Positions 2,082 to 5,409 of a stretch of DNA of 64,000 bases are shown here, in pieces. Made by a program: the position numbers and the translations under genes. The notes beneath the pieces were generated by a model. That model was not told the DNA's origin and searched no databases. It was given only the letters and a program-made list of their open reading frames with translations. Each line of letters begins with the position of its first letter. Within the stretch, counting starts at the first letter, position 1. This DNA comes from Reclinomonas americana ATCC 50394 (taxonomy: Eukaryota), in contig PS015058.1 of assembly GCA_048213135.1 (NCBI GenBank), forward strand, positions 19,934-83,933, read 5' to 3'.

Positions 2082-5409
<3,328 letters not shown>

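Follow-up and report, generated by a model that had tools for sequence, protein, structure and literature searches.

A candidate 5-nt microexon predicted to encode the Ile-Gly of the selectivity filter in an SK/IK-like potassium channel gene

The window, meaning the whole 64-kb stretch of DNA that was analyzed, carries on its minus strand a putative potassium channel gene. An 11-exon model of this gene, assembled from frame continuity and GT-AG boundaries, extends from 4587 to 2082 on the minus strand, encodes 442 residues without an interrupting stop, and ends at a TGA codon (2084-2082). The modeled exons measure 166, 91, 116, 179, 138, 46, 25, 5, 131, 168, and 262 nt, and the intervening introns measure 67, 67, 74, 73, 546, 69, 69, 69, 72, and 73 nt, with 9 of the 10 falling between 67 and 74 nt. 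The donor GTTGCG is used four times, each time after A or T, and GTGCGT three times, while GTGAGT, GTTCTG, and GTCTGT occur once each. The predicted features, in the order of transcription, are as follows.

4587-4422, 4354-4264, 4196-4081, 4006-3828, and 3754-3617, minus strand: core exons encoding S1-S5, separated by introns of 67, 67, 74, and 73 nt
3616-3071, minus strand: the sole long intron, GTGAGT..CAG, with an assembled length of 546 nt
3070-3025, minus strand: 46-nt exon (..NEPGTRFNNYFNCLW) for the turret and the first part of the pore helix, aligned with NCLF in the relatives
3024-2956, minus strand: 69-nt intron, GTGCGT..CAG, with CTGAC 24 nt from its 3′ end; with the two 69-nt introns below it makes three in a row
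2955-2931, minus strand: 25-nt exon encoding FTFITMTT and the first base (A) of an Ile codon; it covers the last part of the pore helix and the first of the filter
2930-2862, minus strand: 69-nt intron upstream of the candidate microexon; donor GTTGCG after the exon base A, acceptor CAG
2861-2857, minus strand: candidate 5-nt microexon TCGGA; bases 2 and 3 of the Ile codon (A/TC) and the whole Gly codon GGA
2856-2788, minus strand: 69-nt intron downstream of the candidate microexon; donor GTGCGT, acceptor CAG
2787-2657, minus strand: 131-nt exon encoding YGD and the inner helix (S6)
2656-2585, minus strand: 72-nt intron with a GTTGCG donor
2584-2417, minus strand: exon
2416-2344, minus strand: 73-nt intron with a GTTGCG donor
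2343-2082, minus strand: last coding exon, including the stop codon

Kyte-Doolittle windows reached at least 1.4 at model residues 36-59, 69-97, 202-230, and 265-298, and the filter lies at residues 252-258. Hydrophobic S5 and S6 helices therefore flank the pore in a six-transmembrane layout, in which S3 and S4 were assigned by homology. The long intron at 3071-3616 contains a 358-nt GT/AC microsatellite (3074-3431) followed by a gap of 133 N (3432-3564), and the alignment to the relatives described below misses no residues across it. For exons located 5′ of 4587, a scored path search gave no clean model; the minus strand between 4588 and 5541 holds several candidate small exons (approximately 20 to 46 nt) with short introns, as well as a long open frame from 5541. 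A divergent plus-strand gene apparently starts near 5610. On the other side, a plus-strand neighbor occupies 1-1865 of the window, ending near 1865, and its introns are short, including one of 65 nt with a GTTGCGTGAC donor at 1577; CT/GA microsatellites lie inside apparent introns of this neighbor at 1205-1241 and 114-146. No plausible plus-strand gene overlapping 2600-3080 was found, and neither Rfam matches nor tRNAs were detected in the 64-kb window.

The segment of interest falls between the pore and inner helices. The coordinates that the first-pass annotation had given for TCGGA and for both 69-nt introns, read on the minus strand, were exact in every case. TCGGA has the layout of a microexon, AG/TCGGA/GT, being an internal exon of at most 15 nt with a complete intron on each side. 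The upstream intron begins with GTTGCGTGAC, ends with TGTGCAG, and contains a branch-like CTCAC whose A is 22 nt from the 3′ end; the downstream intron begins with GTGCGTCCAT, ends with TTCTGCAG, and contains branch-like CTCAC motifs 24 and 20 nt from its 3′ end. The exon that starts at 2787 translates as YGDYFPVGW..., i.e., YGDYFPVGWVGKL..., so that joining A/TC and GGA to it would complete an Ile-Gly dipeptide and yield the filter TMTT-IG-YGD, which reads TMTTIGYGD in the 11-exon model. The first-pass annotation had also held that omission of TCGGA shifts the reading frame, and translation of the skipped form bears this out, with no stop reached before the codon that opens the last exon, at 2343. 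Retention of the upstream intron (2930-2862) would instead be in frame and stop-free; if the downstream intron were spliced, the product would carry an in-frame insertion of 23 residues that by chance ends in AVGYGD (40.1 bits in the pore-profile comparison below). The 143-nt interval 2788-2930 contains neither an N nor a repeat.

The introns flanking TCGGA were compared with intron-like segments throughout the window, defined as segments that start with GTGCGT, GTGAGT, or GTTGCG, contain a branch-like motif, and have their first AG acceptor at 55 to 90 nt. The window contains 67 such segments, with a median length of 69 nt and a mean of 69.2 nt (sd 7.2). An intron-like layout follows 30/73 (41%) of the GTTGCG occurrences, compared to 8.7% of all positions and 10.5% of all GT positions, which makes GTTGCG the most strongly intron-associated GT hexamer in the window among hexamers occurring at least 12 times; GTGCGT is intron-like in 19/86 and GTGAGT in 18/75 of its occurrences. 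GTTGCGT occurs at 34 sites, most of which are visibly followed by a branch-like motif and a CAG at approximately 57 to 85 nt, and the branch-like motif is located 18 to 24 nt from the 3′ end in 8 of the 9 short introns of the channel gene. By length, donor class, and branch position, both introns flanking the candidate microexon look ordinary for the window.

The upstream donor had been described in the first-pass annotation as shifted. GTTGCG does resemble GTGCG moved by one base, but the sequence is a routine donor class at this locus, being used by 4 of the 10 introns of the gene. Shifted-register 5′ splice sites were reportedly described by Roca and Krainer in 2009, and the donor upstream of TCGGA likewise has the look of the usual GTGCG displaced intronward by one base. 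It differs from shifted-register sites in being routine rather than rare, as the counts for the gene (4/10) and for the window (30/73) indicate. The GTTGCG donor characterizes the genome and is nothing peculiar to the microexon.

To estimate how often such an arrangement would arise by chance, 200,000 random 143-mers with the first-order composition of the interval were generated. The pattern AG/T[CTA]GGN/GT with 40 nt or more on either side appeared in 105 of them, and a donor-like continuation was also present in 11. The AG/TCGGA/GT arrangement is far above chance at this one required position. Tandem pairs of strong introns around an exon of at most 30 nt, counted over the window, number two, both in the channel gene; the random mean was 0.53 per strand with a maximum of 5, and the count by itself does not reach significance. 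The idea that the three 69-nt introns arose from one source, by duplication or from a mobile element, was considered and rejected, as their pairwise similarities gave z values of 2.4, 0.6, and 1.8, while other intron pairs of the gene reach 3.4.

Relatives of the predicted protein were sought with the 59-residue S3-S4 exon as the query. The related-loci search returned 352 pattern matches and two loci, L001 and L002. The former, positions 2-1843 of a metagenome contig, is an intronless frame of 613 residues that contains the same motifs and reads ..FTMFVTVRTIGYGD... The latter (68% GC) has only a 17-residue stretch in common with the query and matches no other exon; it is likely a chance match and was dropped. 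With the L001 frame as the query, two proteins were found, P0002 (E 1.4e-80) and P0003 (E 7.5e-71), which are EukProt transcriptome proteins labeled PhM_4, and P0002 as the query in turn gave P0004 (E 4.1e-46). PhM_4 is a name that appears in papers on prokinetoplastids. The channel family is very sparse: searches of billions of sequences yielded three proteins and one metagenome contig. Queries with the S6 exon of the window gave less: P0001, a 44-residue translation that reads one residue into the intron (the exon ends at 2657), gave eight homologue candidates, none with E ≤0.001, and the search of protein representatives gave no matches with E ≤0.001.

The window model and the four relatives are only 23 to 27% identical overall, and the features held in common are concentrated in motifs. 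They include PYPWL in S3, an S4 of the FRLY type, ER before the pore, and an S6 ending in IN(K/Q). All four relatives (L001, P0002, P0003, and P0004) read RT[I/V]GYGD at the filter, and in the four-relative alignment T457, G459, Y460, G461, and D462 are invariant. The relatives also possess an invariant, IQ-like MLIQAAWK after S6, which the window protein matches only loosely. The S3-S4 exon aligned to the family profile with an hhalign probability of 96.8% (E 2.8e-10), with PYPWL and FMVFRLY kept. L001, the only genomic relative found, differs from the window gene in that its whole pore is encoded in one uninterrupted frame with no intron at the place of the microexon. The introns and the microexon are either specific to the lineage of the window or lost in the relatives.

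The profile of the four relatives was compared to solved structures, and the closest were SK4 (E 3.8e-19) and SK2 (E 2.8e-17), followed by KCNQ (E 1.5e-10); this closeness was measured on the relatives' profile and carries over to the window protein only indirectly. The lone 43-residue exon of the window gave only non-significant KCNQ matches in the PDB (best E 0.42). The human SK4 and SK2 channels (KCNN; 6cnm, 8v2g, and others) have the same six-transmembrane layout and a helical stretch after S6, and the SK4 filter reads ..LTIGYGD in the alignment, with TIGYGD likewise present in the window model. In Pfam, the lone exon 2787-2659 matched Ion_trans_2 (PF07885) at positions 41-76 of 79 with 20.7 bits (E 3.8e-4), below the cut-off of 22.5, while P0002, P0004, and the L001 frame passed it at 36 to 43 bits; this was the only Pfam family seen in the window exon and the tested relatives. 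The Pfam domains SK_channel (PF03530) and CaMBD (calmodulin-binding domain, PF02888) had no match in eight exon translations of the window (E up to 10) or in three relatives (E up to 0.01), and the gene is therefore named SK/IK-like rather than a member of that family. On these alignments, we infer that it encodes an SK/IK-like six-transmembrane K+ channel, with channel function to be understood as predicted.

Aligned to the relatives, the exons on either side of TCGGA delimit what must lie between them. The YGD-S6 exon aligned to the family profile with an hhalign probability of 92.7% (E 4.2e-7) and begins exactly at the Tyr of GYGD, residue 460. The 46-nt exon, which ends in NCLW, aligned weakly (3.7%, E 0.011, 11 columns) and ends at P0002 residue 449. 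Since residues 449 and 460 bound the flanking exons, exactly 10 residues are expected between them, and the eight residues FTFITMTT plus the Ile-Gly of the microexon fill this gap. The filter signature T-[VI]-G-[YF]-G-D occurs between the pore and inner helices only if the 5-nt exon is included.

All splice paths through 2955-2657 with no more than two GT/GC-AG introns, each 40 nt or longer, were then enumerated. Of 5656 paths, 561 are in frame and stop-free, comprising 43 with one intron and 518 with two. The path through the microexon ranks first by the relatives' pore profile with 55.5 bits, although this profile was built from the same four relatives and the ranking mainly restates the family's T[I/V]GYGD. 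The second-ranked path, at 47.9 bits and thus 7.6 bits worse, uses a single 138-nt intron with a GTGACT donor at 2925 and reads TTSCYGD at the filter; the third, at 46.9 bits, is a GC-donor variant one residue longer. The pattern T-x-G-[YF]-G is present in two of the 561 paths, and the microexon path is the better-scoring of these. Because the expectation itself comes from the family behind the profile, the ranking indicates that the invariant residues are reproduced and is not independent proof of splicing. With this restriction, the enumeration shows that, among the predicted transcripts, the microexon path alone reproduces the invariant residues of the family.

The second-ranked path is the most direct competitor. 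If the 138-nt intron were removed from the GTGACT donor to the acceptor at 2788, there would be no microexon, and the TTSCYGD filter would make the pore non-selective or dead. Such a transcript requires only one splicing event, keeps the frame, is free of stops, and encodes a protein of equal length, but it loses G459, the first glycine of the K+ signature and invariant in the four relatives. GTGACT is intron-like in 7/45 occurrences, a slight excess over the 10.5% for GT positions as a whole, yet this count probably derives in part from overlap with GTTGCGTGAC donors; the site lacks a G at +5 and follows a C, unlike the enriched donors of the window. An intron of 138 nt would also be twice the window median of 69 nt (sd 7.2) in a gene where nine of ten introns span 67 to 74 nt, and coincidence would have to account for the complete internal acceptor, the strong GTGCGT donor, and the second branch motif alike. 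We regard this reading as very improbable. Even less credible is a decaying pseudogene or an assembly error, with the apparent microexon as a by-product of a broken frame. The assembly is gapped, with the 133-N gap in the neighboring intron, and the 5′ end of the gene lacks a clean model. However, the remaining exons of the 4587-2082 model are all intact and can be joined with no stop codon arising, and the family motifs PYPWL and FMVFRLY are kept in an exon that aligns at 96.8% probability. Nor would a frame error give rise to a pair of complete, modal-length introns, and the 143-nt interval is devoid of N and repeats.

A different possibility is that the microexon is real but alternatively spliced, acting as a switch: inclusion would give the channel, whereas skipping would give a frameshifted S1-S5 protein without filter and S6. 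A stop codon located after the last exon junction is not marked for junction-dependent decay. The skipped form would have a long altered frame whose stop at 2343 lies after the last exon junction, with no downstream junction to mark it, and in other systems very short exons tend to be skipped, as described by Guo and Liu 2015 (PMC4674806). Against this, no sequence sign of regulation is apparent, and both introns carry full-strength signals typical of the constitutive introns here; nothing in the signals surveyed supports the on/off-switch idea, and it appears unlikely. The more ambitious version, that the spliceosome routinely handles exons of at most 5 nt by removing introns of ∼69 nt one at a time and that TCGGA doubles as a production switch, is decidedly unlikely. 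Were a switch nonetheless at work, a missed TCGGA would yield a protein consisting of S1-S5 and the pore helix without filter or S6, the skipped mRNA, having its stop in the last exon, might escape junction-dependent decay, and the resulting protein could co-assemble with channel tetramers and poison them.

The preferred reading is that TCGGA is very probably a real, constitutively included 5-nt coding exon that gives the Ile-Gly of the T-I-G-Y-G-D filter. That TCGGA supplies these two residues was already proposed in the first-pass annotation and is now backed by exon homology, the invariant Gly of the relatives, the path enumeration, and the splice signals. The introns are short and uniform and each has a full set of signals, which suggests that each ∼69-nt intron, with its own donor, branch site, and acceptor, is probably recognized as a unit (intron definition). 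Five bases are too few to be occupied simultaneously by the factors of the upstream 3′ splice site and those of the downstream 5′ splice site. Since the 5-nt exon could not hold both complexes, the two 69-nt introns would most likely be removed one after the other, in a manner comparable to plant microexons, and the mature mRNA would then encode a canonical K+ pore. Both the splicing of the junctions and the order of intron removal are to be taken as predictions.

Ultra-short microexons are already known elsewhere, and the predicted TCGGA exon is a further instance. Coding microexons of at most 15 nt in plants are easily missed in annotation, according to Yu et al. 2022 (PMC8831610), and the expectation that gene predictors may overlook TCGGA agrees with that account. 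In the same study, read patterns indicate that the introns flanking plant microexons are removed consecutively, the upstream one often with delay, and microexons are reported to encode parts of key motifs, an example being the 9-nt invertase microexon that forms part of the beta-fructosidase motif (PMC8831610). An extreme case, a constitutive 1-nt exon, is described for Arabidopsis APC11 by Guo and Liu 2015 (PMC4674806). TCGGA resembles the plant microexons in being internal, coding, and only a few bases long, in its GT-AG flanking introns, in being needed to keep the frame, and in contributing to a critical motif. It differs in its setting, which is a GC-rich, protist-like genome with uniform introns of ∼69 nt, an upstream donor of the GTTGCG class, and an ion-channel gene. 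The plant microexons have RNA-seq and reporter assays behind them, whereas TCGGA is predicted from DNA.

A literature search found no printed microexon within a K+ selectivity filter, in a coverage that leaves out most subscription journals; a match on TRPV1 was not relevant. If confirmed, the first glycine of the K+ filter, a residue that defines the chemistry of the pore, would hinge on a 5-base exon being spliced correctly. Automatic annotation that overlooked TCGGA would call the gene broken or assign it a false filter. As a single locus predicted from DNA, the case is sound as annotation but not surprising.

Apart from the gap in the long intron, the window contains seven more runs of N, at 29973-30811, 40426-40532, 43525-44286, 46630-46984, 47603-47876, 55681-55889, and 57426-57445; with 3432-3564 included, N totals 2699 positions. 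Several of the gaps directly adjoin GT or CT microsatellites, which suggests that simple repeats are where the assembly breaks. These runs of N partly account for the low GC content at 30-32 kb and 46-48 kb.
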